DNA of 32,000 nt, from the NCBI GenBank assembly GCA_001761425.1, contig CP012986.1:540001-572000 (forward strand). Direction: 5' to 3'. This document shows, piece after piece, positions 1-32,000 of the stretch. A model generated the notes under the pieces. It was not told the DNA's origin. It did not search any database and was given only the letters and a program-made list of their open reading frames with translations. Within the stretch, counting starts at the first letter, position 1. The number at the start of each line of letters is the position of its first letter. The stretch is from Candidatus Saccharimonadota bacterium (GTDB lineage: Archaea > Nanohalarchaeota > Nanosalinia > Nanosalinales > Nanosalinaceae). The translations under genes were made by a program, and so were the position numbers.

Positions 1-1044
1 AAGGGCCTCTTCCTCAAAAATCTCTTTTTCATGGCCTTTTGGACATTGGTAAGTAGCTTCAAACATGTCAACGTTTTCAGAGATCAAAAGCGTGTCAACA
101 GCTCCCATCTTCAAGGCCTTGTATACTGGTTCGACTCCGTATTCGCTTTTGCCGTTTTCCTCCTTCAGGTTTGTGAAGAATTCGTTGACAAGATTTTTTT
201 CATGGACTACCTGAGAGTCCTCGATAGCGTCTTCAGCTTTTGAAACAAGTTCCTCCAAGGCCTCTTCACCTGAGTAGTTCAGTGATTCTATGTCTACGAT
301 CTCGTCTTCCAGTTCCTGGTGGATGTAGCCATCGTCGACAAGTTTGTCTTTTACGAATCCTGGGCCTCCGATAATGATTCCCAGAAGCTCTCCGTCTCTT
401 GCTTTGTCCATGAAAGCGCTTTTTGCTTTCTCAGCGATTTCCTGGAGGAAAGTTTTCAGCATCTGTTTTCTTAAACGTGCGAATCGCTGAGCTGACTGTC
501 CTCCAGCCCTTGTCTTACCGGGAACGTTTGATTCAAGCGTAAACGCGGTCTTGACGCTGTTCCCCCGAAGATAGCCGATCGCAGCACTGTTTTTGTCTGT
601 CACGATCAATCCGTAGACTCTGTCGTCTACGACCATCTGCCTGAGAGGGTCCAGAACAAATTCTTTGTCACATCTGTAGTGACGGGATTCGATAGTCTGG
701 GGAGGCACTACTTCCCATATCTTGATATCAGGCCTTCCCTCGGTATCGGAGACGTTTCCGGCGAAGAAGGCTACACCGTTTTCCGGCGTTTCATGCTCCT
801 CGGAAACTTTCCTGCCTATCTTGCCGAGAGCGTCCTGAACGTTCGTCCTGGTATGTTTGGACTTGATGTTTTCCGCTTCGGACTGTTCGGAAGTAACGAA
901 CTCTGAGATCTTGGACATATCATAACCGGCAGGAATGTACAGGGATACAAGCTCCGTGTTTCTCCCCCGGATATCCTCTAGCTCGTTGATGAGCTTCTTT
1001 AGCTCGTACTTGGACATTTCCTCAGGTTTTTCGTTTTCGCTCAT
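1..1044 (-). CDS. prf1: peptide chain release factor aRF1 (partial; C-terminus lies beyond window start)
   Basis: Own translation of the minus strand from the ATG (complement of 1042-1044) gives MSENEKPEEMSKYELKKLINELEDIRGRNTELVSLYIPAG... It contains the NIKS motif (SEAENIKSKHT) and the GGQ motif (KTRAGGQSAQRFARL). The frame stays open to position 1, so it is absent from the complete-ORF track. Confidence 0.9.
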   Translation of the reverse strand, partial: MSENEKPEEMSKYELKKLINELEDIRGRNTELVSLYIPAGYDMSKISEFVTSEQSEAENIKSKHTRTNVQDALGKIGRKVSEEHETPENGVAFFAGNVSDTEGRPDIKIWEVVPPQTIESRHYRCDKEFVLDPLRQMVVDDRVYGLIVTDKNSAAIGYLRGNSVKTAFTLESNVPGKTRAGGQSAQRFARLRKQMLKTFLQEIAEKAKSAFMDKARDGELLGIIIGGPGFVKDKLVDDGYIHQELEDEIVDIESLNYSGEEALEELVSKAEDAIEDSQVVHEKNLVNEFFTNLKEENGKSEYGVEPVYKALKMGAVDTLLISENVDMFEATYQCPKGHEKEIFEEEAL

Positions 1045-1069
1045 AGAAGAGAAAGGTGAAGAAATTCTT

Positions 1070-1822
1070 TTAATTGTCTCCGGCGAAGGCCTCCTCTATC
1101 TTCTCCTTTGACAGCAGCATGTAATCCTGGTCCGAAGTAAAAAGCTCCAGGCACATTGTACCGTCAAAATTTTCCAGCTTCGAGAAAAAGGCCTGGAAAT
1201 CCACCTGTGCCGAACCGATCGGAAGATGAAGATCTTCGTTCTCACGGGTGTCCTGGGCATGGATATGCGAGATTTTTTCTCCCTCGTTTTCCAGGAAAGT
1301 CTCTGTGATCTCCTGACCTGCCTCGGCAAAACCGTGGCCGGTATCAAAGCACATTGAGGCCTCCACTTTTTCTATGATCTCGGCCAGGTCAAACATTTCC
1401 AGGGTATCGAATTGGCCGACGTTTTCAAATACCATTTCGATATCTTTTTCCTCGCCAAGGGCCTTCAGCTTCTTTATCTGCTGTTCAAGGATAACCTGTT
1501 GGCGTTTTGATTCTTCATCTCTCATGTTGGGATGTATGACAGCTTTTTCCGTCTCAAGCTCTGCGGAGAACTCCAGAAGCCTTTCGAAGTAACTTATCAA
1601 GGCCTTGTTAAGTTCTTCGACTCCTGTAGCTACTGGCTGGCGGAAAGGAAGATGGACTATAAGGTAGAAGTTTTTCTCGTCCAGGATTTTCCTTAGATTC
1701 TTTTGATCGATGTCTTCAGGTCTTATCTCTTTTTCTCCTATCGCCAGCTCCACGAAGTCGAATTCTTCTGGAACCTCCTTGATTTTCTCTGGTGCTGGGC
1801 CTACGCTTACTCCGTAATCCAT
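1070..1822 (-). CDS. xylose isomerase-like TIM-barrel protein (sugar phosphate isomerase/epimerase or AP-endonuclease-2 family)
   Basis: 250 aa ORF. Metal-ligand-like pattern: HLPF..., AVIHPN, FENV, CFDTGH, ISHIHAQD, then LHLPIGSAQVDF, typical of this fold. It starts 3 nt after the valS stop and ends 25 nt before the aRF1 start, which looks like an operon. Confidence 0.7.
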   Translation of the reverse strand: MDYGVSVGPAPEKIKEVPEEFDFVELAIGEKEIRPEDIDQKNLRKILDEKNFYLIVHLPFRQPVATGVEELNKALISYFERLLEFSAELETEKAVIHPNMRDEESKRQQVILEQQIKKLKALGEEKDIEMVFENVGQFDTLEMFDLAEIIEKVEASMCFDTGHGFAEAGQEITETFLENEGEKISHIHAQDTRENEDLHLPIGSAQVDFQAFFSKLENFDGTMCLELFTSDQDYMLLSKEKIEEAFAGDN

Positions 1823-1825
1823 TTT

Positions 1826-4426
1826 TCAGGCCTCCTGGATGATTACCAGCGTGTTCTCTGTCTCGATCATCTTTCCTTCTCCTGTGTAGGTTCTTTCTTC
1901 TTCGACCTCGAACATTTCAGGCTTGAGATGTTCTCCTGCGACATCCAGATGTCCTGCTTCAATTGTGTACTCGTTGTTCTCCAGAGCTTCCTCGATTTCT
2001 CCGACTTTGTCGCCGTACTTTGGACCTGCTCTGGAGTAGTCCAGACTGATCCTGATGATCTTTTTCTCGGTCTCAGGCTCGCTTTCAAGTTCTTCCAGTT
2101 CTTTGACATGCATGACGTCTTTGACTGCGTCTTCGAGGCCTGAAATCTTTCCGTAGACCTGGATTTTTTCCAGCTCTGAGTTTGGAGACATCTGGTTCTG
2201 GGTCTTGTACTTTCTGATTGCTGAGATGACTTCCATCGCGTTTTCTCCTGCTTCGAGGTCGGCCTCTATCCCTCTTTTTCTCGGCCATTCGCTTCTGTGG
2301 ATACTGGAGCTTTCGTACATGTCGTTCCAGATTTCCTCTGTGGTGTGTGAGAGCATCGGAGCCATCATCTTCAGGTAGGCCTTATGTGTTTCTTTCAATG
2401 TGTACTGTGTGCTCCTGGACTTTTCTTCATCCAGCTTCTGCTTGGCAATCTCCAGGTAGTTGTCGCAGAAAGTATTCCAGAAGCTGTGCCTGAGATGGTC
2501 GCGGGCCTTGGAGAACTCGTAGTTCTCCATTTTCTCAGTAACGTGTTCGATGGTATCTTCCAGCTCTGCGAGCATCCATCTATCGACTTCATCAAGATCT
2601 TTTTCTTCTACGTCGAGCTGGTCAAGCGGTGCCAGGTTCTCGACAAGCTTGGATGCGTTCCAGAGTTTTCTCATCAGCTTCTCTCCTTCTACAAGGTCTT
2701 TATCCTTTAATGCCAGGTCGTCGCCGACACTGACCTGTGCAGCCCAGTAACGGGCAGCATCGACAGGATGCTCCTCCAGAACTTCTTTTGGAGTCGTGAC
2801 GTTTCCCCGTGACTTTGACATTTTCTCCCTGTTTTCATCCAGGACGTGGCCGTTGATCATAACCGAGTCGAAAGGAACATTCCCTGTGTGCTCGTAGCAT
2901 TTGACGACCGTGTGGAACAGCCAGAAACTGATGATGTCATGTCCCTGAGGCCTGAGATTCATAGGGTAGAGCTCTTCACGGTCCATCTCAAATCTTTCTT
3001 CCTCTGGGTTATAGTCCCAGCCAGAGTTGATCAGAGGTGTCAAGGAGCTGGTCGCCCATGTATCAAGGACATCTTCCTCAGGCCTGAACTCTGAGCCTTC
3101 ACACTCCGGGCATTTATCGACCGGACAGTCATCCTGAATAGGCTCGACCGGAAGATCCTTCTTATCAGGTAGTATCTCTTCTCCACATTCCTCGCAGTAC
3201 CAGACAGGTATCGGGATTCCTGAGTCTCTCTGACGTGAGATACACCAGTCCCATTCAAGGCCTTCGATCCAGTGCCTGTAACGGGTGAACATTTTCTCCG
3301 GGTACCAGTCCATCTCTCTACCTGCTTCCAGGTATTTTTCCTTGTGATCCAAGACTTCTATGTACCATTGCTCTGTGACCAGGAACTCGATTGGAGTATC
3401 ACATCTCTCATGTGCCTGAACAGTATGCTGGATCTGACGCCTGTCAAGAAGGAAGCCTTTCTCTTCAAGATCATCGACGATTTCCTCGCGTGCTTCCTCT
3501 GTGGAAAGGCCTCCGTAGCCTTCTGCGACATCTGTCATTGTTCCTGATTCGTCGATAGCGATTTTCAGGTCGAGGTCGTGTTTCTGGTACCATTCAATAT
3601 CGTTTTGGTCTCCGAAGGTACAGCACATGACGACTCCTGTACCTGTCTCCATGTCGACTCTTTCATCTTCGATTACAGGGACTTCACGGTCGAACATAGG
3701 GACTTCGGCTTTTTCACCGACAAGATGCCTGTTTGACTCGTCTTCCGGATGGACGAAGATCGCGACACACGCAGGAAGCAGTTCAGGCCTTGTGGTGGAG
3801 ATGACCAGTGAGCCATGTCCTGTTGCCAGTGGGAATTCGATGTCGTTGAAATGGCCCTGTTTCTCCAGGTCTTCGGATTCGACCTGGCTGATCGCTGTTT
3901 CACATTCAGGACACCAGATTGCGGGGGCCTTTTCCCTGTATTCTCTGCCTTGTTCGTAGAGGTCAATGAATGATAATTGGCTGATCCTCTGGACGCGTGG
4001 TTCTATTGTCTTGTAGGTATTCGACCAGTCCATAGAGAAGGCGAACTCTTGCATCGCCCCGGTGAAATCTTTCTCGTACTCCTGGCAGACTTCACGGACT
4101 TTTTCCTGGAACTCTCTTCGTGAAAAATTCTGGTGGCGGATATCAAGCTCCCGCTCCGTCAATCGCTCGCTTGCAATCCCGTTGTCATCGTAGCCAAACG
4201 GGAAGAAAACGTCTTTACCGTTCATGCGCTGGAAACGCGCCATGAAATCCGTCAAAGTATTGCCGTACGTATGTCCAAAGTGCAGAGAACCTGAGACTGT
4301 AGGAGGCGGAGTATCGATAGAGAAAACCTCTCCATCCTCGCCGTTGTACTCGTAAGTACCGTTTTCAATCCACTTTTCTCTCCACTTCTGCTCAACGTCG
4401 TCCGCGTCGTATTCTCCTTCAGGCAT
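1826..4426 (-). CDS. valS: valine--tRNA ligase (ValRS)
   Basis: 866 aa. Class I HIGH region PPPTVSGSLHFGHTYGN, KMSKS motif (REKMSKSRGN), Zn-knuckle-like CPECETAI / CEECGEE, and a length typical of archaeal ValRS. Confidence 0.93.
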   Translation of the reverse strand: MPEGEYDADDVEQKWREKWIENGTYEYNGEDGEVFSIDTPPPTVSGSLHFGHTYGNTLTDFMARFQRMNGKDVFFPFGYDDNGIASERLTERELDIRHQNFSRREFQEKVREVCQEYEKDFTGAMQEFAFSMDWSNTYKTIEPRVQRISQLSFIDLYEQGREYREKAPAIWCPECETAISQVESEDLEKQGHFNDIEFPLATGHGSLVISTTRPELLPACVAIFVHPEDESNRHLVGEKAEVPMFDREVPVIEDERVDMETGTGVVMCCTFGDQNDIEWYQKHDLDLKIAIDESGTMTDVAEGYGGLSTEEAREEIVDDLEEKGFLLDRRQIQHTVQAHERCDTPIEFLVTEQWYIEVLDHKEKYLEAGREMDWYPEKMFTRYRHWIEGLEWDWCISRQRDSGIPIPVWYCEECGEEILPDKKDLPVEPIQDDCPVDKCPECEGSEFRPEEDVLDTWATSSLTPLINSGWDYNPEEERFEMDREELYPMNLRPQGHDIISFWLFHTVVKCYEHTGNVPFDSVMINGHVLDENREKMSKSRGNVTTPKEVLEEHPVDAARYWAAQVSVGDDLALKDKDLVEGEKLMRKLWNASKLVENLAPLDQLDVEEKDLDEVDRWMLAELEDTIEHVTEKMENYEFSKARDHLRHSFWNTFCDNYLEIAKQKLDEEKSRSTQYTLKETHKAYLKMMAPMLSHTTEEIWNDMYESSSIHRSEWPRKRGIEADLEAGENAMEVISAIRKYKTQNQMSPNSELEKIQVYGKISGLEDAVKDVMHVKELEELESEPETEKKIIRISLDYSRAGPKYGDKVGEIEEALENNEYTIEAGHLDVAGEHLKPEMFEVEEERTYTGEGKMIETENTLVIIQEA

Positions 4427-4654
4427 CTTTTACCGTCCTCTAAGCAAGAAACCAAAACGGATTTTTAAATCTCTTAACCGATTTTGAACAACGAAAAAAC
4501 TGGCCGAAATCAATTCTTCAGAACTCATAGTAGAAAAACCTCCAGAGACAGCACAAGGCCTGACAGAATTACCGAAGCTTCCGAGGCCGTACAAAACGGC
4601 CACCCTTCCGAAGAGAGGCCTTGCTCATCTGTAGACATATTTCAGGCCTCAAAA

Positions 4655-6226: not shown

Positions 6227-7378
6227 ATGACCCAGGAATGGTTCCAGAACTCGGTAATCTATCAGATAATGATTGACAGGTTCGCAGGAGTTGAGGAACC
6301 AGGAAACTGGCATAACCCTGAGTACATAGGTGGAGACCTCCAGGGAATAAAGGAGAGGCTGGACTACCTTGAAGGCCTTGGAGTGGATGTGATCTGGATC
6401 TCACCTTTCTACGAGGGAGAAGCGTACCACGGCTACCATATAACTGATATGTACTCTGTCGACGCCGAGTTCGGGACGGAGCAAGATTTGAAGGAGTTGA
6501 TAGACGAGGTCCATGAACGTGATATGAAGATTATCGCTGATTTCGTCCCTAACCATGTCTCAGTTGAACACGAATTCTTCAAGGAGGCCTCCAGTTTTCC
6601 GAACAGCGAGTACCGCGACTGGTTCTACTTCAGAGAATGGCCTGACAGCTACCTCTCTTTCCTGGATTTTGATCAGGACCTGGTGAAGCTGAACCTGGAA
6701 AACAGGGATGCCAGGGCCCATGTGATCGATGCTGCCAAGAAATGGCTTGAACTGGGTCTAGACGGCTACAGACTGGATCACGTAGTAGGGCCTTCACACA
6801 GCTTCTGGAATCATTTCGAGGAAGAGATACACAGCGAGTTTCCTGAAGCAGTTGTTGTAGGCGAGGCCTGGTTCAACGAGATCGGCTTCGAGCACCTGGA
6901 GACATTTAAGATGCCTCGTAAGTACCTGAACGCGGTTACTGGAAGCCAGGAACTGGCACAGAGAAATTATATCGGGGTTCTTGACGGCGTTCTTGATTTC
7001 AAGGCCCGTGAGATAGTTCTTTCAGTCTTTGGAAGCGATCTATTACCTGATTCTCTGGCGGAAAGTTTCCTGAAACTGCATTACAGTCACTACCCGGAAA
7101 ATTTCCTGCTTCCTAACTTTCTTGACAACCATGACACTAACAGAGCGCTATACGAGCTTGGAAACGATAAAGAGAAGCTGAAAAAGGCCTTCTCCCTGAT
7201 TCTGGAACAGGATCAGCCTACTGTTATCTACTACGGTACTGAGGTCGGGATGACACAGCATCAGGGAATGAAAGATTTTGAGAAGCATGGTGATTTACAG
7301 GCCCGAAAGCCGATGCAGTGGGAAAACTTTGACTCTGACCTGATGAAGTTCTTCCAGAACCAGATACAGGAGAACTGA
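6227..7378 (+). CDS. GH13 alpha-amylase-family glycoside hydrolase (cytoplasmic, no signal peptide)
   Basis: 383 aa with the GH13 conserved regions: DFVPNHVS (region I), GYRLDHV (II, nucleophile Asp), VVGEAW (III, acid/base Glu) and FLDNHDTNR (IV). It also has QIMIDRF...GGDLQGI..LDYL..LGV..IWISP. A TATA-like GTTTTTATCC lies about 25 nt upstream of the ATG. Confidence 0.88.
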   Translation: MTQEWFQNSVIYQIMIDRFAGVEEPGNWHNPEYIGGDLQGIKERLDYLEGLGVDVIWISPFYEGEAYHGYHITDMYSVDAEFGTEQDLKELIDEVHERDMKIIADFVPNHVSVEHEFFKEASSFPNSEYRDWFYFREWPDSYLSFLDFDQDLVKLNLENRDARAHVIDAAKKWLELGLDGYRLDHVVGPSHSFWNHFEEEIHSEFPEAVVVGEAWFNEIGFEHLETFKMPRKYLNAVTGSQELAQRNYIGVLDGVLDFKAREIVLSVFGSDLLPDSLAESFLKLHYSHYPENFLLPNFLDNHDTNRALYELGNDKEKLKKAFSLILEQDQPTVIYYGTEVGMTQHQGMKDFEKHGDLQARKPMQWENFDSDLMKFFQNQIQEN

Positions 7379-7394: not shown

Positions 7395-7586
7395 GTGACC
7401 TGGATCAAACAACAGTCTCCAAAAGATTTAAATATGTCACTACCGTATGATAACATTATGATAGCAATGACTCAAAACGAGTACAGTTCGATCACAGATG
7501 AAGGCCTTGATGAGCTGAAATCGGAGATTCCACGGGGTAAAGTGGAGTTTAAAAAGATATCAATTAGTACGGGTGATAGAAGATGA
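7395..7586 (+). CDS. small hypothetical protein (start uncertain; ATG at 7434 is an alternative)
   Basis: 63-codon ORF from a GTG 17 nt after the amylase stop. It overlaps the next ORF by ATGA (7583-7586). No recognisable domain. Confidence 0.35.
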   Translation: MTWIKQQSPKDLNMSLPYDNIMIAMTQNEYSSITDEGLDELKSEIPRGKVEFKKISISTGDRR

Positions 7587-7921
7587 CTGAGATGAGTTAT
7601 GAGACCTTGGAGAGTCCTGAGTACCTGAGTGATATTGCGGATGATGAGCAGATGGATGAGTTTGAGGAGGATGTACTTGTTTCGGCAGGTTTCAAGTCCC
7701 AGGGCGGTGAGTGGAAGGAGGCTTACCTTCAGTCCGATCCTGATGAAGAGTTCCTTACTTATGAGGTGGATGACTTTGGTAACTGTTACAGCGGTGAGAC
7801 TGTTGAGGTTCACAGGTCCAAAGTTGTGGACAGTGCCGATGTCGACAAGGCCTTGCAGGAATTTGATCCTGAGTACTCTCCGGCAGTTCAGGGCAACGAA
7901 GAACTTGATGACCTGTTTTAA
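7583..7921 (+). CDS. acidic hypothetical protein
   Basis: 112 aa, strongly D/E-rich like the rest of the proteome. ATGA overlap with the upstream ORF. No recognisable motif. Confidence 0.55.
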   Translation: MTEMSYETLESPEYLSDIADDEQMDEFEEDVLVSAGFKSQGGEWKEAYLQSDPDEEFLTYEVDDFGNCYSGETVEVHRSKVVDSADVDKALQEFDPEYSPAVQGNEELDDLF

Positions 7922-7946
7922 TATTTTATCTCTCTTCTTATTTTCT

Positions 7947-8291
7947 GTGAACTCCGAGGAAATCTCTGTTACAGTGACCAGTGAGGAGTACGGTTTTGAT
8001 GAAGAGGATCTGATCTTCAGCTATACGGAGAAAGATTCCGGGGATCGAAAAGTTGAAAGGTACCAGCTTAAAGACGAATTTGGCATGGTTCTATCCGGGG
8101 AGAAAGTCTGGAGAACAGAGGAGAAAAAGTTCCTCGGCCTCTGGACTTTTACAGAAGAGGTCTATGAGGAAGATGTCCAGAAGAGAGTAACCTATGACAG
8201 CAGTAGACAGTCTGTGATAACGGAAGAGGCCTCATGGAACGAATTTCAAAAACTCCTCCAGGACACTGATGCGTACAAATACATCTTCTGA
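7947..8291 (+). CDS. acidic hypothetical protein (GTG start inferred)
   Basis: This is the 3' part of track ORF 7629..8291. The 5' part overlaps 7583..7921 out of frame. The first in-frame start after 7921 is the GTG at 7947, giving about 114 aa (NSEEISVTVTSEEYGFDEEDLIF...). Confidence 0.5.
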   Translation: MNSEEISVTVTSEEYGFDEEDLIFSYTEKDSGDRKVERYQLKDEFGMVLSGEKVWRTEEKKFLGLWTFTEEVYEEDVQKRVTYDSSRQSVITEEASWNEFQKLLQDTDAYKYIF

Positions 8292-8337
8292 ACTGCTCCA
8301 GTAAGAAATTTGAACCTTGACATCTAATAATTAAACT

Positions 8338-8685
8338 GTGAGAGGAGAACTCCACAAAGTATATCACGGCGAATACTCCACGGCCAGAGGCCTCTTCTTC
8401 GACGGCACGGAGGCCTATATCGTGGAAGTCTATGAGGGCGGGAACACAGACGAACTAGGTGTAAAACTCTACACTGAAGACGAGGAAATGGCAGATATAG
8501 CAGTCAACCAGCCCAGCATACACGGCACAGGAATAAATGAAAGCTTATCTATCCTTGATAGAAAAGCTGAACTACCTGAAACAGATTTAGAGATAGAGGC
8601 CTTCGCCCGGTATATTTTACAGGGAGAAACAGAGAAAGGCCTGGAATACACAGGTCCTAGAGATCTGGATGATATAGAGTACTGA
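8338..8685 (+). CDS. acidic hypothetical protein
   Basis: 115 aa ORF with a GTG start. Proteome-like composition and no recognisable motif. Confidence 0.5.
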   Translation: MRGELHKVYHGEYSTARGLFFDGTEAYIVEVYEGGNTDELGVKLYTEDEEMADIAVNQPSIHGTGINESLSILDRKAELPETDLEIEAFARYILQGETEKGLEYTGPRDLDDIEY

Positions 8686-8717
8686 AAAAGTCTTCCTGAA
8701 TCAACTCCACACACAGC

Positions 8718-8759
8718 ACCAAAACATTTTTATGTTGTGATGGGTAAGTAACAACTATG
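8718..8759 (+). promoter_or_regulatory. conserved 42-nt upstream element, copy 1 (TATA-like box plus GTAAGTAACAA block ending at the ATG)
   Basis: ACCAAAACATTTTTATGTTGTGATGGGTAAGTAACAACTATG matches 9497-9538 at 35 of 42 positions without gaps. The TATA-like TTTTTAT is centred about 27 nt upstream of the ATG, which implies a leaderless transcript. Confidence 0.6.
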
Positions 8760-9449: not shown

Positions 9450-9496
9450 AATTTTTCAAACAATCTGAGGAAAAGGATTTCTACAGACTTCAGCTT

Positions 9497-9538
9497 ACCA
9501 CAACATTTATAAGTTGCTATGAGTAAGTAACAAATATG
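9497..9538 (+). promoter_or_regulatory. conserved 42-nt upstream element, copy 2
   Basis: ACCACAACATTTATAAGTTGCTATGAGTAAGTAACAAATATG has the same layout as copy 1, with TTTATAA centred about 27 nt upstream of the ATG at 9536. Confidence 0.6.
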
Positions 9539-13057: not shown

Positions 13058-15037
13058 ATGATTATAGGGGACTACTATATCAATAACTTCCTCGTTCTGG
13101 CAATAGTCCTTCTCCTGTTCGGAGGCCTTGGCCTCCTGATAGTCCCCGGTGATGCAGGAACTGGTCAGACCGATCAGAACCAGTCGAGCGGTAACTACGA
13201 GCTACTGGTGAGCGGACAGGGCCTTCAGGCCGGTTCTTTCCAGGATGTGACACTGGTAGATGATACAGGTGATCCTGTCTCGGGAATATCAGTGCTGCTC
13301 AACGGCCAGGAGGTAGGCACAACTGGAGATGACGGCTCAGTGACATTTGAAGTTCCGAACCAATCGACTGTTACTGTTTCTGCCTCCAGCTCCCAAGTAG
13401 ACTTTGAAAAAAACTTTCAGGTAGAAAGCTCCGGTAACTCGGGAGAAAACGGAGATGGCTCAGGGAACAATGACAGCGACGGAGACTCTCAAGAGGACGG
13501 AGGCGACGGAGACAATGATAACAGCACTGACGACTCCTCAGACGGAAACAACACAGATAACCCAGACAATTCTATAGAAGCAGATATAAACCGCCTGAGC
13601 CCTGAAAACCAGCAGCTTAACTCTGCATCATTTGAGGCCTCATACGAACTCCAGGCAGAAAACGCTTCCTACAAACTAAGCCTTGCGGAGCAGAAAAAGG
13701 CCTCAGGAAACCTCGACGGAGAAAAAACTGTTAACGAACAGGTATCGATGCCTTTCAACGGTACAGCAGGCCTTGAGATGGAGATAGTACGAGAAGGAGA
13801 AGTTCTCGCCTCGGAAAACCTCATAGTAAATTATACTGCAGAAGGTTCGGATGATGGTTCGAACGACAGTTCAGGTGGGGAGGATCCTGCCGGGGTTACC
13901 GCAGACCTCTCAGTTCCTTCATCGGTGCATGTAGGGGATGCCCTGGAGGCCGATGCATCTGGATCGACTGGAGATATCATAAACTACACATGGAACTTTG
14001 GAGAAGGTACTGAAGAGACCAGGGAGGCCTCGACGATAGAACACACCTACAGCAGTGAAGGAACCTACGAGTTCGTGGTAACTGTAAACGGAGAAAACAG
14101 TACAGAGGACAACGCCTTGGAAACGATAGAGGTCCGGAGCCTCCAGGAACCTCTCATCAACTTCCAGAGTCCTACAAAGGGCTATGTGACAGATCAAAGT
14201 TCTATTGATTACGAATTTGTTGTAGAGAATGCTTCAAGCGACGCAGAATATACTGTATTGATAGATCAGTCAGCTACTGTTTCTGGAAATCTTGAAGAGG
14301 GAAGTAGTACAGTACAGCGAGATGTAGAAGTTCCTGCTACAGTTTTCAATACTTCTGTTCAGGTGAGTCAAGGGGAGGAAACATATACTTCTGAGAGAAG
14401 GAGGGTAGATGCTCGTGACTCTGAACCACAGCCTAAATATTCTCTTGTATCACCTGAAGAGGGACAGTCTCTGGAGACAGTGGATTCTCAGATGGATGTA
14501 GAATTGAAATATGAGATCACCGATAGAAATTGGGCTAGCTCCGCTAATTTGACTCTGGAGAATGAAAGTTCTGTAATCTTCCAGAATCCTGTTAGTGTTG
14601 CATCAGGAAATCATACAGAGAAAGTGTCTGGTTTAACCTCTGGAGAATACTCTTATTCTCTAGAAATAGAGGGAGATGGTAATTCAGATAAGAAGAGTTC
14701 CTCATTTGAAATACGGGAGATAGAACCATATTATAATATTGCTGAATGGAATGAAACCGTACTGGATAACGGATATGAGGTAAGGTTCAACCTTTCATAT
14801 AACGTTAGCGATTCTTCCTTGCTTGAAGCTAATATCTATAACTCCAGTGGAACCGAAGTAAGGTCATATTCCAGATTTGTTGACGACGTTGGAAGTCTGA
14901 ACTTTACAAAAAGCTTCATGGAACCAAAGAACTATTACTGGTACCTCAACATAACTAGCGGAGAAGAAACAGTCTTATCTACAAAACCAAATGAAAGAGA
15001 GTTTGAAACAGTGGAGTCAAACCCTAATGACAATTAG
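13058..15037 (+). CDS. membrane-anchored/secreted acidic cell-surface protein with PKD domain and Ig-like modules
   Basis: 659 aa. Features:
- N-terminal hydrophobic segment FLVLAIVLLLFGGLGLLIV.
- CarboxypepD_reg-like segment (VTLVDDTGDPVSGISVLLNGQEVGTTGDDGSVTFEV).
- D/S/G/N low-complexity linker (nt ~13427-13573).
- PKD signature (INYTWNFGEGTEE...HTYSSEGTYEFVVTV, nt ~13895-14140).
- Many N-x-S/T sequons. Confidence 0.8.
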   Translation: MIIGDYYINNFLVLAIVLLLFGGLGLLIVPGDAGTGQTDQNQSSGNYELLVSGQGLQAGSFQDVTLVDDTGDPVSGISVLLNGQEVGTTGDDGSVTFEVPNQSTVTVSASSSQVDFEKNFQVESSGNSGENGDGSGNNDSDGDSQEDGGDGDNDNSTDDSSDGNNTDNPDNSIEADINRLSPENQQLNSASFEASYELQAENASYKLSLAEQKKASGNLDGEKTVNEQVSMPFNGTAGLEMEIVREGEVLASENLIVNYTAEGSDDGSNDSSGGEDPAGVTADLSVPSSVHVGDALEADASGSTGDIINYTWNFGEGTEETREASTIEHTYSSEGTYEFVVTVNGENSTEDNALETIEVRSLQEPLINFQSPTKGYVTDQSSIDYEFVVENASSDAEYTVLIDQSATVSGNLEEGSSTVQRDVEVPATVFNTSVQVSQGEETYTSERRRVDARDSEPQPKYSLVSPEEGQSLETVDSQMDVELKYEITDRNWASSANLTLENESSVIFQNPVSVASGNHTEKVSGLTSGEYSYSLEIEGDGNSDKKSSSFEIREIEPYYNIAEWNETVLDNGYEVRFNLSYNVSDSSLLEANIYNSSGTEVRSYSRFVDDVGSLNFTKSFMEPKNYYWYLNITSGEETVLSTKPNEREFETVESNPNDN

Positions 15038-15041
15038 ATAC

Positions 15042-15088
15042 AGAAGCTTGGTCGCCAGCAAGCTTCTAAAGAAATGCGAGGGTTTTTT
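15042..15088 (+). terminator. hairpin plus T-run between the two surface-protein genes
   Basis: Perfect 9-bp inverted repeat AGAAGCTTG (15042-15050) / CAAGCTTCT (15059-15067) with an 8-nt loop, followed by TTTTTT at 15083-15088. It could be a terminator or attenuator. The next gene's GTG is at 15091. Confidence 0.35.
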
Positions 15089-15090
15089 CT

Positions 15091-17823
15091 GTGAATATTA
15101 AAAGATTTTTCGGTAGTATCCTAATCTTAAGCCTTTTGATGATTGCTCTAGCTGTAAACGTCTCGGCCCAACAGTATGAGACAAATTCATGTAATGATCC
15201 TGATAGTTGTGACTTTAACCTAGATACTGATCCTGGAGAACTTCTAATAATAGGTCATGCTTCTGCTGATACTGGTAACAACTGTGACTGGACTTTTAAC
15301 GTAAATCTGAATGGCAACAATGTTGTCTCCACAAGAGAAGGTGATTCAGACTGGACTGTATTCGACAATCAGGCCATTGTTACTTTGAGAGATGTAAACT
15401 CTGGAAGTCAGGACATTAATGTGGTTGAAAACCATGAATGTAGCCCGAACTGGAGGAGAACTCAGGTCTCAGCTATCCAGGTTTCTAATTCCTGGGGAAC
15501 AGCCCGCACGTCGAGATGTAATGATCCTGATGGATGTGATTTCAATATAAATACAGGCTCAGGCGAGCTACTTCTTTTAGGTTATTCTTCGGCAGATACA
15601 GGCAATAATGACGACTGGACATTTGGTGTTGACCTCGATGGTACCACTGAGGCCTCGGTAAAAGAGGGAGATTCGGATACCACTGTCTACGATAACCAGT
15701 TCTTTTCTACTTTGGTAGATGTAAATTCAGGCTCCCACGATATCAACACCTGGGAGAATCATGAAAACAACCCCAACTGGAGAGAAACTCAGGTAGTAGC
15801 AATAGAGATTCCTCAAGGAATCCCCTCATCTTCAGTTCAATGTAACGATCCGGACAACTGCGATTTCAACCCGGACAGCGGAGGATCTCCAGTTCTTCTG
15901 AGCGGTCATTCATCAGCCAGTACCGGAAACAACGAGGACTGGACGTTCAACCTCAATGTTGACGGAAATAGTGTTGCTTCTTCGAAGGAAGGAGACTCCG
16001 ATATAAGCGTATTCGATACACAGGGACTCAGTACAATAGTTGGCGGAGGAAACCTCAATATTAATACATGGGAAAGCCACGAAGGCAGTCCTAATTGGAG
16101 GGAGACGCAGGTTTCAGCAGTATCTATCGTCAATCCGGATTCTCCGACAATAACAGATGTAAACTATGACAAAACAGCAGGCGATCCAGCGACAATCCAA
16201 GGTACGATAAATGTAGATATCGACAATGCTGGAGGTAATGCACCGAACAACCAGCTTGAATCTTGTACAGTTACTGCTGAGGGAGTTGACAGCGGAGGCC
16301 AGGTAAATCTGAATACAAACATCAATGGTGATTCCTGTAGCTTTTCCGTAGATAACAACCAGCACGGTAACTGGAACCCAGATGAAGAACTCAGGTTCGA
16401 GATGAGCGTAGAAGACAGCTACGGAGGGACAGATGATTTAACAGGATTTGAACAGTTCCCGGTAAATCCTCCGAATGCACCAGCACTCGCAGCACCGGGA
16501 GACGATGCAGAGTCGGTCAGTACCGGGCAGAGTCTAGAAGTAACAGCTACACATCCTGACGGTCTTGAGATGGATGTTAGGTTCTACGTAGATGATGGAT
16601 CAGGCTTCTCACAGGTAGGACCTACAAGAACAGCATCCGATGGAGAGACAGTCTCAGTCAGCCCAGGATTCAGTGAAGGAACAGAATACGACTGGTATGC
16701 GGAAGCGGAAACACAGGACAGAACCAACGAAAGCGACAGATGGCACTTCACCACTAACCACAGGCCTTCAATCCAAGAAATGGACACTCAACCGAAGACC
16801 TCTGATCACGGTATATCGTTCACGGCAACGGTGAGAGAAGAGGACGGGAGAAGCCAGATAGACAGCTGTGAACTAGAGGCATCAGGCGGCGGAGGTTCAG
16901 AAACGTACACAGCGACAGTAGAAGATGGAGAAACCCAGGAAGAAGCAGTATGCAGTGTAGACGACATCGGTTTCGAAGACAGTTCGTGGTCTCACCTTGA
17001 AAACCTTGACCTCGAGCTGACTGTCACCGACCAGCAAGGTCTCTCAGCTACAGGTAGCAGTGAGGGACAGTTCCCGAACCACAGGCCGGTGATCAAAAGC
17101 CTCGAGGCAAGTGAATACGTTGACAGAGAGGCCTTCGAGGTTAATTCGTTGATAAGGCCTGTAGATGTCGGTTCTGATGAGATGAGAGGCTGTACTGTAG
17201 TCTTGAGTGATGAGGATAATTCCTATACTGCTGGTTCGATGACACAGGTTAATTCGACTCATGTACGGTGTGAAGGCGATGACCTGGGGCCTTCGAAGTT
17301 CCCAGGCCTTGATATGGATGAGGAACTGGAGGTGGAGGTCAGAGCTACTGATATTCACGGTGGCACGGCTTTAGATTCTATCATGTACAATCTGCCTACC
17401 GGTATAGACTATCAGTACTCTGCTATGATCATCGACAGTGGAGGAATCGATTTCCTGCCTTATCAGGTAAGCAACAATGGTAACGGACAGGCAGAGTTCA
17501 GCACAGAACTTCAAAACGTGAACGCATCCTTTACAGCTAACGGAGAAGATTCCAGGAACTTTACACTGGATTCTGGACAAGTTGAACAACAGAGCATAAG
17601 GATCTCTCCAGACGTAGAGTTTACAGGTACAAAAGAACTCAGGATAATCACGGAGAACCTTGAAACAGGAATACAGAAAGAAAGCACTATCCCTATCCAT
17701 GTAAGAGAAGCACCGAAGACGACGGAAAGGCCTGTACCCGGTATAGGAACTTTACAGTTACTTGTACTGTTTGTCACAGCACTGATTCTATTTTCCGGGA
17801 GAAAATCCGGGCCTCAAATCTAA
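15091..17823 (+). CDS. large secreted cell-surface protein: signal peptide, 3 tandem Cys-pair repeats, Ig/FN3-like modules, PGF-CTERM-like C-terminal anchor
   Basis: 910 aa with a GTG start. Features:
- Signal peptide MNIKRFFGSILILSLLMIALAVNVSA-QQ.
- Three ~108-aa repeats starting CNDPDxCDFN.
- Modules of ~108-110 aa, two of them opening with NHRP(S/V)I.
- C-terminus TTERPVPGIGTLQLLVLFVTALILFSGRKSGPQI, which resembles the PGF-CTERM sorting signal. Confidence 0.85.
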   Translation: MNIKRFFGSILILSLLMIALAVNVSAQQYETNSCNDPDSCDFNLDTDPGELLIIGHASADTGNNCDWTFNVNLNGNNVVSTREGDSDWTVFDNQAIVTLRDVNSGSQDINVVENHECSPNWRRTQVSAIQVSNSWGTARTSRCNDPDGCDFNINTGSGELLLLGYSSADTGNNDDWTFGVDLDGTTEASVKEGDSDTTVYDNQFFSTLVDVNSGSHDINTWENHENNPNWRETQVVAIEIPQGIPSSSVQCNDPDNCDFNPDSGGSPVLLSGHSSASTGNNEDWTFNLNVDGNSVASSKEGDSDISVFDTQGLSTIVGGGNLNINTWESHEGSPNWRETQVSAVSIVNPDSPTITDVNYDKTAGDPATIQGTINVDIDNAGGNAPNNQLESCTVTAEGVDSGGQVNLNTNINGDSCSFSVDNNQHGNWNPDEELRFEMSVEDSYGGTDDLTGFEQFPVNPPNAPALAAPGDDAESVSTGQSLEVTATHPDGLEMDVRFYVDDGSGFSQVGPTRTASDGETVSVSPGFSEGTEYDWYAEAETQDRTNESDRWHFTTNHRPSIQEMDTQPKTSDHGISFTATVREEDGRSQIDSCELEASGGGGSETYTATVEDGETQEEAVCSVDDIGFEDSSWSHLENLDLELTVTDQQGLSATGSSEGQFPNHRPVIKSLEASEYVDREAFEVNSLIRPVDVGSDEMRGCTVVLSDEDNSYTAGSMTQVNSTHVRCEGDDLGPSKFPGLDMDEELEVEVRATDIHGGTALDSIMYNLPTGIDYQYSAMIIDSGGIDFLPYQVSNNGNGQAEFSTELQNVNASFTANGEDSRNFTLDSGQVEQQSIRISPDVEFTGTKELRIITENLETGIQKESTIPIHVREAPKTTERPVPGIGTLQLLVLFVTALILFSGRKSGPQI
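15190..16130 (+). repeat. three tandem ~324-327 nt (108-109 aa) intragenic domain repeats
   Basis: Repeat starts are at Cys34 (15190), Cys143 (15517) and Cys251 (15841). Shared blocks are CNDPDxCDFN, G(H/Y)(A/S)SA(D/S)TGNNxDWTF, KEGDSD, V(F/Y)D, (W/V)E(N/S)HExxPNWR(E/R)TQV. The repeats are conserved at protein level but diverged at nucleotide level. Confidence 0.85.
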
Positions 17824-28399: not shown

Positions 28400-28432
28400 A
28401 GTTTAACTTCAAGGCCTTAACTATTCTTTTTC

Positions 28433-30369: not shown

Positions 30370-30376
30370 TTTATTT

Positions 30377-31591
30377 TTGGCAGAAGGAGAAGAAATAAAA
30401 CAACAGGTTGTAGGGAACGTACCTTTCGGTCAGATCAATTCTATACTTGAAGGCAAGCTTGAGAGAGACGGCGAGAGAAGAAAAGCTGTCGAAGAGGTCG
30501 AGGAAAACAGCAACCGGGTTATCACCGGGGGCGGGAAGCGTTTCCGCGTCGCACTTCCATATATCATGGCACAGGGCCTTGACCTTGATTACAGCGATGA
30601 AGAGCTGATTGAGGCCTTTATCCCGATAGAGATGGCTCACGGCCTTTCCCTGGTCATGGATGACATGATAGATGAGGATAAAAAGAGGAGAGGCATGAAG
30701 ACTCCGCATGAGCGGTTGAAAGATCAGGGCTATACGGATAAGCAGGCGGAATCGCTTGTTACCCTCGACGTAATGCAGATACTTTCAAGGGCGGAGAGAG
30801 CACCTCTTGAACTTGATTTCCTGTCCAGAGACCAGCAGGTGGAGATAACAGAAACTATAGGAGATGGGATAACCAGACTGACCCGTGGACAGGAGCTGGA
30901 CGTGGCAGGAGAAAACTCCATGGACGAAAAATTCCAGGAAAGACTCTCATACAGGGGAGACGAATTCAGCTACGAAATGTTTTACCGTGACGTCGTAGAA
31001 GGCAAGACATCACCGCTCTTCGAGGCAGGGCCGAGAATACTTGAGATAATGTCGGGAAAAGAACTGGAAAATCTTCACGACTACACCAGGAACCTGGCAA
31101 AGGCCTTCCAGATCAGAGACGACATCCTGGATATATCAGGTGGAGAGGAAAAAGTCAGTGTCACGGAAAGGCCTGAAGAAAAGGGTATAGGTAAGGATCG
31201 TTACTCTGATATCAGTGAGGGGACTATGACCCTGCCTATAAACTATGCGTTCCAGCTGATGGATGATGAGGACTGGGGCCAGATGGAGGCCTATGTAAAG
31301 GAGCTTGTGGATTCTGAGAACTATCTTGCTTCTGTAGATGACTTTTTCAAAGTCTACGGCGACAGGAGAGAGTTCCTTGAGTCCGTTATGAAGAAGGATA
31401 GTCCTGAAACATACGAGCTTCAGATCGCAGGTAAAATCATAGAGACTACCGGGGCTCTGGAGAAGGCGAACCAGGAGGCCTTGGATTATGCGGAAAATGC
31501 GGTCGAGAACCTTGAGGAATCCGGCCTTGACGGCGAGTACGGAGAACTTCTTGAGGATATGGCTTACTTCGCAGCTACAAGATCAAAATAA
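30377..31591 (+). CDS. polyprenyl (geranylgeranyl-type) diphosphate synthase family protein, unusually long; start uncertain
   Basis: First Asp-rich motif LVMDDMIDEDKKRRG and second Asp-rich motif FQIRDDILD. The track ORF starts at 30308 inside gatA. The TTG at 30377 is the first non-overlapping start and the ATG at 30344 is an alternative. Confidence 0.75.
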   Translation: MAEGEEIKQQVVGNVPFGQINSILEGKLERDGERRKAVEEVEENSNRVITGGGKRFRVALPYIMAQGLDLDYSDEELIEAFIPIEMAHGLSLVMDDMIDEDKKRRGMKTPHERLKDQGYTDKQAESLVTLDVMQILSRAERAPLELDFLSRDQQVEITETIGDGITRLTRGQELDVAGENSMDEKFQERLSYRGDEFSYEMFYRDVVEGKTSPLFEAGPRILEIMSGKELENLHDYTRNLAKAFQIRDDILDISGGEEKVSVTERPEEKGIGKDRYSDISEGTMTLPINYAFQLMDDEDWGQMEAYVKELVDSENYLASVDDFFKVYGDRREFLESVMKKDSPETYELQIAGKIIETTGALEKANQEALDYAENAVENLEESGLDGEYGELLEDMAYFAATRSK

Positions 31592-31617
31592 AAAGAATGA
31601 CTTAACCAAAAGATACT

Positions 31618-32000
31618 ATGACAAACGTAAAAATAGGCCTTGAGACACACGTACAACTTGATACAGAGACAAAACTTTTCTGCGGATGTCCAAATGAGGA
31701 AACAGAGGAACCGAACACGCATGTATGTGAGACCTGTCTGGGACACCCTGGTTCAAAGCCGAGGCTGAACAGGAAAGTCCTTGAATACGCAGTAAAGACC
31801 TCTCAGGCCTTACAGTGTGATATCAACGAAGATATTTTTTTCTCAAGGAAAACGTACTTTTATCCTGACATGTCCAAGAATTTCCAGATAACACAGTACG
31901 AGGTTCCGGTCGGAGAGGACGGAAGTATCGAGGTCAAGACCGGTGACGAGAAAAGAGAAATCGGTATCAACCGTCTACATATCGAGGAGGATCCGGCGAA
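31618..32000 (+). CDS. gatB: Asp/Glu-tRNA amidotransferase subunit B (partial; continues beyond window end)
   Basis: Own translation from the ATG at 31618 gives MTNVKIGLETHVQLDTETKLFCGCPNEE...HVCETCLGHPGSKPRLNRKVLEYAV...FSRKTYFYPDMSKNFQITQYE, the canonical GatB N-terminus. The frame is open to the window end, so it is not in the ORF track. Confidence 0.88.
   Translation, partial: MTNVKIGLETHVQLDTETKLFCGCPNEETEEPNTHVCETCLGHPGSKPRLNRKVLEYAVKTSQALQCDINEDIFFSRKTYFYPDMSKNFQITQYEVPVGEDGSIEVKTGDEKREIGINRLHIEEDPA

Follow-up and report, generated by a model that had tools for sequence, protein, structure and literature searches.

The six-letter palindrome AGGCCT occurs about once every 240 bases in the DNA of a tiny, salt-loving nanohaloarchaeon (DPANN) and also abounds in its clade relatives; in this genome it is some 15-20 times more frequent than expected by chance. 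The word has reshaped codon choice and even protein sequences, and we tentatively read it as an archaeal counterpart of the still-unexplained highly iterated palindromes (HIPs) of cyanobacteria.

AGGCCT is the commonest hexamer in the window

We analysed a 32-kb stretch of DNA, hereafter the window, which is part of a 1.125-Mb contig. An exact count returned 135 copies of AGGCCT, or 4.22 per kb, identical to the hand count in the initial annotation, whose central observation is therefore confirmed; the GC content is 47.0%, against the 45% estimated there. Dinucleotide-preserving shuffles of the window gave 7.65 copies (sd 2.46, maximum 14), Markov models of order 0 and order 1 predicted 6.8 and 7.7, and models of orders 1-4 estimated with the 135 sites masked predicted 6.3-10.0. 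Unmasked high-order models gave 65.9 and 125.6, but these values are circular, because AGGCC and GGCCT come almost entirely from the motif itself. AGGCCT is the most frequent of all hexamers, whereas the next palindromic hexamer has 21 copies, the 18 one-mismatch neighbours have 3-18 copies each, and the other NGGCCN words have 1-18 copies.

Three outcomes had been named beforehand as fatal to the observation, and none occurred: the count was exact, shuffles of synonymous codons gave only 19.6 copies (sd 3.9) against 120 observed in CDS, and the flanking 16.5 kb of the same contig had the same density, with 204 sites in 48.5 kb in total. The individual sites named in the initial annotation, at 6373, 6585 and 16762, and the stop-codon overlaps at 1828, 12181, 23025 and 25790, were likewise confirmed. 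The sites and the features that illustrate them are as follows.

1..32000: all 135 copies, of which 120 lie wholly inside CDS and 15 are intergenic or overlap gene ends, starting at 114, 258, 730, 1087, 1189, 1357, 1600, 1828, 2136, 2377, 2948, 3080, 3258, 3507, 3785, 4556, 4616, 4644, 4805, 4854, 5235, 5259, 5511, 5696, 5771, 6014, 6155, 6373, 6585, 6864, 7185, 7502, 7848, 8227, 8388, 8411, 8597, 8637, 8807, 9087, 9191, 9371, 9660, 9852, 10048, 10254, 10429, 10485, 10753, 11031, 11673, 11938, 12181, 12233, 12306, 12479, 12597, 12685, 12757, 13123, 13635, 13698, 13768, 14025, 15650, 16762, 17129, 17155, 17304, 17728, 18147, 18210, 18374, 18768, 19154, 19462, 19611, 19869, 20076, 20103, 20408, 20538, 20727, 21169, 21232, 21348, 21531, 21661, 21803, 21956, 22145, 22174, 22475, 22543, 22907, 23025, 23120, 23150, 23384, 23599, 23757, 24061, 24595, 24639, 25159, 25385, 25790, 25853, 25901, 25925, 26091, 26198, 26538, 26640, 27121, 27456, 28064, 28185, 28412, 28735, 28917, 28948, 29227, 29607, 29739, 29882, 30113, 30297, 30612, 31101, 31169, 31287, 31476, 31635 and 31805.
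1826..4426, minus strand: the ValS gene, with 8 sites filling 8 of its 9 AGGCCT-compatible amino-acid contexts; the sites at 3785 (T-R-P-E-L), 3507 and 3258 (x-G-L) sit at amino-acid positions conserved across all nanohaloarchaea.
1828..1833, minus strand: a copy overlapping the ValS stop codon (GAG GCC TGA), with similar overlaps at 12181 (TAG of the HAD gene), 23025 (GCC TAA) and 25790 (TAA-GGCCT); stop codons simply provide the T or A of the word.
4556..4649: three intergenic copies (4556, 4616, 4644) in the 269-bp spacer between the ValS start and the end of the metallo-beta-lactamase-fold gene.
6373..6378, plus strand: a phase-2 copy, GA-A GGC CT-T, encoding Glu-Gly-Leu; 47 of the 64 x-G-L contexts are occupied.
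6585..6590, plus strand: a phase-1 copy in the alpha-amylase gene, G-AG GCC T-CC, encoding Glu-Ala-Ser; 49 of the 66 [Q/K/E]-A-[F/L/S/Y/C/W] contexts are occupied.
13058..17823, plus strand: a site-poor segment holding two large surface-type or unknown genes (a 659-aa PKD/Fn3 protein and a 910-aa protein), with 2.2-2.5 sites per kb, only 11 of 19 compatible contexts occupied, a GC3 of 0.42-0.43 against about 0.53 elsewhere, and the two longest gaps (1625 and 1112 bp); more recent acquisition or faster turnover is inferred.
16762..16767, plus strand: a phase-0 copy, AGG-CCT, encoding Arg-Pro; 21 of the 25 Arg-Pro dipeptides in the window are written this way.

The signal acts on DNA, is conserved and marks one apparent clade

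To determine at which level the enrichment acts, we examined reading frames, shuffled coding sequences and peptide contexts. The three codon phases (0, 1 and 2) hold 21, 52 and 47 sites, and noncoding DNA is at least as dense as coding DNA, with 5.9 against 4.07 sites per kb. Shuffles of codon order gave 9.1 copies against the 120 observed in CDS. Of the 155 amino-acid contexts in the window that could encode AGGCCT, 117 (75%) do so, as do 72% of 815 contexts across the clade, whereas relatives without the motif show 0-17% in all but two sparsely sampled phase classes (R-P in relative L017, 0.43, and one class in relative L006, 0.25; L numbers denote the related genomes compared here). The hexamer itself is the unit, since its flanks vary, and the weak flank preferences (R at -1, T at -3/-4) are of the kind that codon structure would produce.

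Compatible contexts are themselves about twice as frequent as in relatives that lack the motif, numbering 10.6-16.2 per 1000 aa in the clade (15.4 in this genome) against 6.4-11.7, with observed/expected ratios from amino-acid composition of 1.2-1.9 against 0.8-1.2. Conserved enzymes keep a baseline number of contexts with near-full occupancy, while small or unknown genes reach 23-42 contexts per 1000 aa. In a codon alignment of 19 ValS genes, genomes with the motif use AGGCCT at the three conserved ValS positions listed above, while genomes without it use AGACCN or GGACTN for the same residues, and explicit motif-creating amino-acid replacements are also visible.

Next, we compared site positions between genomes. 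Sites are positionally conserved in 64%, 65% and 53% of cases against L003, L005 and L013, respectively, compared with 23%, 17% and 14% for generic hexamers, and third-codon positions inside sites are identical in 70-81% of cases, against 45-54% elsewhere; however, positional conservation cannot separate selection from continuous regeneration when opportunities are 75% saturated. In a ValS tree, all 14 motif-rich lineages (1-4.5 sites per kb) group as one apparent clade, with motif-free L014 as sister, while other nanohaloarchaea and the haloarchaea sit at chance level, a distribution consistent with a single origin. A parallel case, CTCGAG in Natrialbaceae, was also observed.

The sites also repel each other at short range. 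Their pair correlation is 0.09 at under 20 bp and about 0.5 at 20-60 bp, and the variance/mean ratio of site counts is 0.58-0.68, so that spacing is under-dispersed. Synonymous occupancy is 0.24, 0.56 and 0.62 in the bands below 60 bp, against 0.74-0.84 at 60-300 bp (Fisher p = 3e-7), and is lower again, at 0.69 and 0.50, for contexts more than 300-500 bp from any site. One-letter variants are enriched only at the outer positions: GGGCCT/AGGCCC are enriched 3.0x and TGGCCA-type variants 2.3x, while inner variants have ratios of 0.6-1.5, all but ATGCCT/AGGCAT (1.52) below 1.

A putative recognition protein and its alternatives

Our preferred reading, to which we give a probability of roughly 45%, is that AGGCCT is a HIP-like genome word read on duplex DNA, not on RNA or protein. 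In this view, a clade-specific, presumably dimeric, site-specific protein would recognise the word, the most likely candidate being an orphan N4-cytosine methyltransferase of StuI specificity, and a per-site directional fixation bias would drive the word to near-saturation, favouring new alleles that complete it and disfavouring alleles that break its GGCC core. Such a bias could come from recognition-dependent biased repair or gene conversion of heteroduplex DNA, or from selection on a methyl or binding mark, and would act wherever sequence space allows, opposed only by protein constraint and by a recognised site within about 60 bp. Our data show the enrichment and its DNA-level nature, the saturation of synonymous opportunities, the inflation of compatible peptide contexts, the constraint at synonymous positions, the clade distribution and the short-range interference; that a protein reads the site, that this protein is a methyltransferase, that the word is methylated, and that the force is a drive rather than organism-level selection are all inferred.

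Support for a methyltransferase is indirect. A published REBASE survey lists exactly one R-M gene for clade member M3_22 (L004), an orphan Type II methyltransferase predicted to be m4C (PMC10609329), and m4C methylation of AGGCCT exists in Photorhabdus luminescens (PMC6092372). On the other hand, no methyltransferase, restriction enzyme or Vsr gene lies in the 48.5 kb of this genome that was examined, and none was found in roughly 190 kb from clade relatives. Furthermore, the same survey contains no persistent CTCGAG methyltransferase for the Natrialbaceae case, so methylation may not be the common denominator.

The initial annotation had read the hexamer as the selected unit, under a positive function or a biased repair process, and had offered a solitary methyltransferase, very-short-patch-type repair, a nucleoid or segregation protein, and a self-DNA tag as candidates. 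This interpretation is partly supported: the hexamer is the unit, it acts in all phases and in intergenic DNA, and it reflects a positive directional force rather than composition, but the repair candidate is disfavoured, the methyltransferase has only the indirect support above, and the last two remain possible.

Of the alternatives, the strongest, though we consider it unlikely, is that AGGCCT is the binding site of an abundant dimeric chromatin, segregation or chromosome-organising protein, without methylation. Selection would keep roughly one site per 250 bp, and sites within about 60 bp would be redundant because the bound complex occludes that much DNA. The palindromic target, the exclusion zone and under-dispersed spacing, the intergenic density, the conservation between genomes and the lack of a known persistent methyltransferase for CTCGAG are in line with this, and Xu et al. 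reached a similar reading for HIP1 (PMC5861425). However, at an extrapolated ~4,700 sites per genome the benefit of any one site should be tiny, yet sites override amino-acid sequence in a small-genome symbiont, where weak selection is inferred to be ineffective. In addition, no candidate protein was identified, and no footprint extends beyond the hexamer other than the flank preferences described above.

Somewhat less likely still, AGGCCT could be a DNA-uptake or recombination-promoting tag that accumulates by molecular drive, fragments carrying the word being preferentially imported or recombined among clade members. Even spacing, proteome reshaping and fewer extra contexts in conserved proteins are hallmarks of uptake sequences, and the lower occupancy of contexts far from any site is expected for regionally younger DNA. 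HIP1 has also been reported to enhance natural transformation in a methylation-dependent way and to co-vary with T4SS proteins (bioRxiv 2024.09.10.611283; bioRxiv 2026.06.24.733823). Against this, a 6-mer discriminates poorly, self DNA being only about 20x denser in the word than foreign DNA, no sequence-specific uptake system is known in archaea, and the interference is sharp and short-range (under 60 bp), not on the scale of uptake or recombination fragments.

That very-short-patch-type mismatch repair, coupled to cytosine methylation and converting T:G to C:G within AGGCCT-like contexts, alone regenerates the word, as CCWGG is regenerated in E. coli, is improbable. The word has two cytosines per strand, and many gains relative to motif-free relatives are A-to-G or T-to-C transitions, for example AGACCT to AGGCCT in ValS. 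However, the predicted depletion of deamination products is absent, with ratios against relatives of 0.87 for AGGTCT/AGACCT and 0.86 for AGGCTT/AAGCCT, inside the 0.51-1.47 range of reference hexamers. Many gains also need transversions, such as GGA-CTN to GGC-CTN, or several changes including amino-acid replacements; a purely local repair bias does not predict the mutual exclusion of sites; and REBASE lists no Vsr for M3_22, whose methyltransferase is predicted m4C rather than m5C.

Finally, a by-product of codon or amino-acid usage, of oligonucleotide composition, of a dispersed repeat family or of assembly, to which the flank preferences and the unmasked Markov models might seem to point, is refuted by the shuffles, and also contradicted by the occurrence in all phases and in intergenic DNA, the variable flanks, the site-masked models and the same signal in independent assemblies from JGI, Logan, NCBI and ENA.

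Comparison with known systems

The closest known systems are HIP1 (GCGATCGC) and the alternate highly iterated palindromes of cyanobacteria, such as GGCGCC in Calothrix PCC 7103 and GCsGC in Cyanothece PCC 7822 (PMC4390886, PMC5861425). Shared with these are a short GC-rich palindrome that is tens-fold over-represented, presence in all reading frames and between genes, conservation between genomes beyond background, lineage specificity with on/off differences between relatives, spacing more even than random, an unresolved function, and one-letter deviants concentrated at the outer positions, the pattern that Elhai described for HIP1 (PMC4390886). Here, however, the host is a DPANN archaeon, the word is a hexamer of StuI specificity, the density of about 4,200 per Mb exceeds the 300-2,700 per Mb quoted for HIP1 (PMC4390886), and the cognate methyltransferase that defines the HIP-methyltransferase association was not found in the DNA examined.

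The DNA uptake sequences of Pasteurellaceae (USS) and Neisseria (DUS) reportedly share genome-wide over-representation, an effect on encoded peptides, preference for less constrained protein positions, spacing more even than random and an explanation by molecular drive (Maughan/Redfield; Findlay/Redfield), but are non-palindromic 9-12-mers that occur about once per kb and depend on a known uptake receptor, whereas no uptake system or specificity is known for archaea.

Among orphan-methyltransferase marks, such as Dam GATC in E. coli and those of the persistent orphan m4C/m6A methyltransferases of archaea (CTAG in Halobacteria), the density of AGGCCT is like that of Dam sites, and an orphan Type II methyltransferase, predicted m4C, is reported for clade member M3_22. 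GATC, however, is a 4-mer near its chance frequency, CTAG is under-represented in Halobacteria, and the persistent archaeal orphans listed so far recognise 4-5-bp sites (PMC10609329).

Lastly, the Vsr/Dcm system of E. coli, with CCWGG over-representation and CTWGG depletion, illustrates how a methylation-linked repair bias can enrich a palindromic word, but the diagnostic depletion of T-for-C neighbours is absent for AGGCCT, and the enrichment here is far larger and includes amino-acid changes.

Abundance of AGGCCT and its footprint in genes and proteins

The window contains exactly 135 copies of AGGCCT, which confirms the number counted by eye in the initial annotation. Dinucleotide-preserving shuffles of the same sequence give 7.65 copies (sd 2.46, maximum 14), Markov models of orders 0 and 1 give 6.8 and 7.7, and Markov models of orders 1–4 estimated with the sites masked give 6.3–10.0. 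Unmasked order-3 and order-4 expectations (65.9 and 125.6) were rejected as circular, because AGGCC and GGCCT exist almost only inside the motif. AGGCCT is the commonest of all hexamers, whereas the next palindromic hexamer has 21 copies, the 18 one-mismatch neighbours have 3–18 copies and the other fifteen NGGCCN words have 1–18. The enrichment is therefore about 13–20-fold and sharply specific to the six letters.

Look-ups with ValS and GatA place the window at positions 546420–578419 of a 1,125,078-bp contig (Ga0136257_100001) of JGI metagenome 3300010222. Joining these look-ups gives 48.5 kb of the contig, about 4% of the genome, with 204 sites (4.2 per kb), showing that the enrichment is not local to the window. 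An independent Logan assembly from SRR2630167 is 100% identical to the JGI contig and thus provides no polymorphism data. The gene content is archaeal, including eRF1, archaeal AdoMet synthase, FtsZ, GatCAB and an Fn3_arc/PKD surface protein, and the nearest ValS relatives are nanohaloarchaeal MAGs (87–91% identity), so the organism is a nanohaloarchaeon.

To determine the level at which the signal acts, we compared the sites with the coding sequence. Of the 135 sites, 120 lie in CDS (4.07 per kb), with 21, 52 and 47 sites in the three codon phases, and 15 lie in or overlap the 2.5 kb of noncoding DNA (5.9 per kb). Shuffling synonymous codons within each gene gives 19.6 sites in CDS (sd 3.9, maximum 31), a figure that is itself inflated by the effect of the motif on codon usage, and shuffling codon order gives 9.1. 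Of all amino-acid contexts that can encode the word, 75% do so: 21 of 25 for R-P, 49 of 66 for [QKE]-A-[FLSYCW] and 47 of 64 for x-G-L. Across the motif-rich clade described below, 72% of 815 contexts are occupied, while in nanohaloarchaea without the motif occupancy is 0–17% in all but two sparsely sampled phase classes (R-P in locus L017, 0.43, and one class in locus L006, 0.25). Sites that touch stop codons simply use the T or A of the stop. No Rfam or tRNA hits were found in the window, arguing against RNA or tRNA explanations. An extended motif was also rejected: base preferences are seen at −1 (R) and −3/−4 (T) (chi2 24–157) and are of the kind that codon structure would produce, whereas positions beyond ±4 show little or no preference (chi2 1.3–12.6) and no extended word is shared.

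The proteome is reshaped as well. Compatible peptide contexts number 15.4 per 1000 aa in this genome and 10.6–16.2 in clade relatives, compared with 6.4–11.7 in nanohaloarchaea without the motif, with heuristic ORF sets used for the relatives. Relative to amino-acid composition, observed/expected is 1.2–1.9 in the clade against 0.8–1.2 outside it. Two motif-free nanohaloarchaeal loci, L014 and L009, have somewhat elevated numbers of compatible contexts (9.0 and 10.4 per 1000 aa; observed/expected 1.12 and 1.20) with about zero occupancy, which could be a ‘ghost’ of a lost drive or just noise. A ValS codon alignment shows both modes of change. At the universally conserved T-R-P-E-L and E-G-L, clade members write AGGCCT where the others write AGACCN or GGACTN, and elsewhere the motif coincides with replacements such as MENY to MEAY, QYTL to EKAL and LKPE to LRPE. 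Highly conserved enzymes (ValS, MetRS, ABC ATPase, FtsZ) have a baseline number of contexts that is almost fully occupied, whereas small or uncharacterised genes carry 23–42 contexts per 1000 aa. Two segments of the window stand out:

7458–10045: same-strand run of six small ORFs (42, 112, 127, 115, 230 and 169 aa; two overlap by 4 and 14 bases), with no Pfam match in the five that were scanned (all but the 42-aa ORF) and some of the highest densities of compatible contexts, up to 34.5 per 1000 aa.
13058–17823: two adjacent large genes, a 659-aa PKD/Fn3_arc surface-type protein and a 910-aa protein with no Pfam hit, both AGGCCT-poor (2.2–2.5 per kb), with lower context occupancy (11 of 19) and a GC3 of 0.42–0.43 against about 0.53 elsewhere.

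The second segment fits younger, more recently acquired DNA or rapidly evolving cell-surface genes, which is an inference. A horizontally acquired low-GC CRISPR-Cas island, which would be a natural region in which to look for motif amelioration, has been reported in the published Ca. Nanopetramus SG9 genome from Atacama halite (1.1 Mb, 46.4% GC).

Distribution, maintenance and spacing of sites

Next, we examined loci fetched around ValS from genomes and metagenomes. AGGCCT is present at 1.0–4.5 per kb in 14 distinct nanohaloarchaeal lineages: the window and loci L003, L004 (Nanohaloarchaea archaeon M3_22, CP046106.1), L005, L013, L026, L029, L205, L206, L213, L214, L215, L217 and L229. It is at 0–0.5 per kb in all other nanohaloarchaea and in about 120 haloarchaeal loci. 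In a neighbour-joining ValS tree, a single-gene tree without support values, the motif-rich lineages form one clade with motif-free L014 (B1-Br10_U2g19) as its sister. The cause therefore looks heritable and old, with ValS identities to the window falling to about 68% inside the clade. The best relative from the metagenome scan, L205, shares 91% ValS identity but only 77–81% nucleotide identity with the window, which is too distant to polarise gains and losses. Some motif-free nanohaloarchaea strongly avoid GGCC, with 6 copies in 22.6 kb in L008 against about 36 expected, 1 in 9.1 kb in L207 and 2 in 3.8 kb in L249, suggesting a HaeIII-type restriction system in those lineages.

Sites are maintained between genomes. 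Sites of this genome are AGGCCT at the aligned position in 64% (L003), 65% (L005), 53% (L013) and 28% (L004) of cases, compared with 23%, 17%, 14% and 15% for generic hexamers, and in 0 of 75 cases in three motif-free genomes. At conserved amino acids, third-codon positions inside sites are identical in 70–81% of cases, against 45–54% outside. Because opportunities are near saturation, this conservation is compatible with either purifying selection or continuous regeneration.

Relative to motif-free relatives, inner-position one-letter variants are neither depleted nor enriched: their ratios are 0.62–1.52, all but ATGCCT/AGGCAT (1.52) below 1, against a 5–95% range of 0.51–1.47 for reference hexamers. 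This includes the deamination-type words AGGTCT/AGACCT (0.87) and AGGCTT/AAGCCT (0.86), which argues against a Vsr-like T:G to C:G mechanism as the sole cause. In contrast, the outer-position variants GGGCCT/AGGCCC (3.0x) and TGGCCT/AGGCCA (2.3x) are enriched.

Sites also avoid each other at short range. Over 240 kb and 791 sites, the pair correlation is 0.09 at 0–20 bp, about 0.5 at 20–60 bp and roughly 0.8–1 beyond, and counts per 0.5–2-kb bin have a variance/mean ratio of 0.58–0.68. This is not just a lack of opportunities, since a compatible context is occupied in 24%, 56% and 62% of cases when another site lies within 20, 20–40 and 40–60 bp, but in 74–84% of cases at 60–300 bp (Fisher p = 3e-7). 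Occupancy falls again (0.69, 0.50) for contexts more than 300–500 bp from any site, suggesting regional heterogeneity. Whatever favours a site is weakened by a neighbour within about 60 bp, as expected if a protein complex reads the site, but not from a purely local mutational bias.

To ask whether viruses of these hosts carry or avoid the word, we scanned IMG/VR viral contigs for clusters of three AGGCCT. The AGGCCT-rich hits were tandem repeats or chance matches, and the scan is uninformative on this point. The AGGCCT-dense stretches lie at L191 6700–8430, L180 588–2440 and L099 2071–2760 (handles of viral contigs); one is a 73-bp unit containing AGGCCTAGGCCT, one a 63-bp unit and one a 15/30-bp unit, unrelated to the dispersed nanohaloarchaeal pattern.

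A putative reader and a second iterated palindrome

No methyltransferase, restriction enzyme or Vsr was found in Pfam tables covering the 48.5 kb, Pfam scans of ten unannotated ORFs gave only a KH domain, and motif scans of all fetched nanohaloarchaeal loci, including those of the clade, found nothing. The REBASE survey of archaeal R-M systems lists exactly one R-M-related gene for clade member M3_22, a Type II methyltransferase with no partner, predicted m4C (PMC10609329, Tables 1–2), and m4C modification of AGGCCT is documented in Photorhabdus luminescens (PMC6092372). However, a REBASE ‘AGGCCT’ prediction for a Moorella enzyme turned out to be GGGCCC (PMC6700114), so the specificity of such enzymes cannot be taken from prediction alone. 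The one nanohaloarchaeal methylome found (Ca. Nanohalococcus occultus) reports GDGCHC rather than AGGCCT, and no paper in the literature searched mentions AGGCCT together with Nanohaloarchaea.

The observations above require a force that reads duplex DNA, is specific to six letters, is heritable within one clade, acts per site strongly enough to override synonymous drift and some amino-acid constraint, and is damped by a neighbouring site. We settle on a HIP-like system, in which a clade-specific, site-specific protein, most likely the orphan methyltransferase, would recognise the word, and alleles that complete the word would enjoy a fixation bias, either through recognition-dependent biased repair or gene conversion or through selection on the mark. 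While the abundance, DNA-level nature, conservation and spacing of the sites are shown directly by our analysis, the reader protein, its binding, methylation of the word and a population-level bias are all inferred. We favour a drive-like bias over organism-level selection because an extrapolated ~4,700 sites per genome would each contribute negligibly to any collective function, yet they change proteins in a reduced symbiont; this step, too, is inference.

Among the alternatives, a methylation-independent site for a chromatin or segregation protein is possible though less likely, followed by an uptake or recombination tag, which has now also been proposed for HIP1 (bioRxiv 2024.09.10.611283; bioRxiv 2026.06.24.733823). 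Vsr-type repair is disfavoured, and explanations from composition or artefact are excluded. The interpretation in the initial annotation, which had proposed a positive function or a biased repair process acting through one of several candidate mechanisms, is partly supported.

A second lineage-specific iterated palindrome was found in Natrialbaceae-type loci (L020, L022, L023, L027, L028, L031, L035, L039, L042, L047, L053, L055 and L069, compared with loci L019, L021, L037, L058, L064 and L081). CTCGAG has 69–97 copies per 22.6 kb in these loci, 4–5x a site-masked Markov expectation and about 2x a synonymous shuffle. In the four such loci examined (L020, L022, L028, L055), 83–92% of Leu-Glu dipeptides are written CTCGAG, and Leu-Glu is about twice as frequent. 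In other haloarchaea the word is depleted (1–14 copies), with Natrialba intermediate (31–33). On/off variation among Haloarchaeobius congeners was considered and rejected, because the L020 region is closer to Natronorubrum than to the other Haloarchaeobius loci. The REBASE survey lists no persistent CTCGAG methyltransferase for Natrialbales. This second case suggests that the phenomenon is recurrent in halophilic archaea, and is also a caution against assuming methylation as the common cause.

A more far-reaching possibility, which we consider unlikely on present evidence but of high interest if true, is that halophilic archaea harbour a general, so far undescribed process, in which whichever 6-bp palindrome is recognised by a lineage-specific DNA-binding enzyme is driven to saturation by sequence-specific biased gene conversion or repair in their (possibly polyploid) genomes, rewriting synonymous sites and about half as many amino-acid contexts again. 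AGGCCT in one nanohaloarchaeal clade and CTCGAG in Natrialbaceae would then be two independent instances, giving a comparative handle on the 30-year-old HIP1 problem.

Comparison with known systems

Why cyanobacterial genomes are packed with HIP1 has been an open question for about three decades, and independent, phylogenetically distant instances make it testable by comparison. Here, a different word in a different domain of life shows the same syndrome with unusually clean numbers, including 75% saturation of synonymous opportunities, a doubling of compatible peptide contexts and a roughly 60-bp exclusion zone. The ValS tree suggests a single origin with motif-free sister lineages, which makes phylogenetic profiling for the responsible gene straightforward. 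The data also show that a DNA-level force unrelated to protein function measurably shapes the proteome of a reduced DPANN symbiont, which matters for codon-usage models, dN/dS estimates and homology inference in these genomes. In practical terms, AGGCCT density is a sharp binning marker for this clade, and StuI sensitivity would be a one-tube test for methylation.

Of the known systems, a restriction-modification target of StuI type does not fit, since avoidance of the word in the host genome would be expected and the opposite, a 15–20-fold enrichment, is seen. Dispersed repeat families (REP, MITE, tandem arrays) do not fit because copies share no extended flanking sequence, and the depletion of T:G-derived neighbour words that marks Vsr-type very-short-patch repair is absent. 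DNA uptake sequences (USS/DUS) share over-representation, even spacing and a proteome footprint with AGGCCT, but have a 9–12-nt non-palindromic core recognised by a dedicated uptake receptor, with demonstrated biased uptake, whereas the word here is a 6-bp palindrome with no extended conserved flank.

AGGCCT matches highly iterated palindrome (HIP) elements in every sequence-level feature tested: it is a short GC-rich palindrome whose observed/expected reaches the ~15 or more, and whose density reaches the hundreds to thousands of copies per Mb, that characterise these elements; it occurs in coding DNA in all frames and in noncoding DNA, and is not a peptide or RNA motif or a dispersed repeat; its sites are conserved between related genomes beyond background; and its one-letter deviants are biased to the outer positions, repeating Elhai's observation for HIP1 that deviants concentrate at the first and last letters (PMC4390886). 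The host, however, is a nanohaloarchaeon, while the family is currently described from cyanobacteria, and for the cognate orphan methyltransferase present when such palindromes are abundant there is only a hint in the literature, the one putative m4C enzyme predicted for M3_22. We therefore describe AGGCCT as working like a HIP without assigning it to the family.
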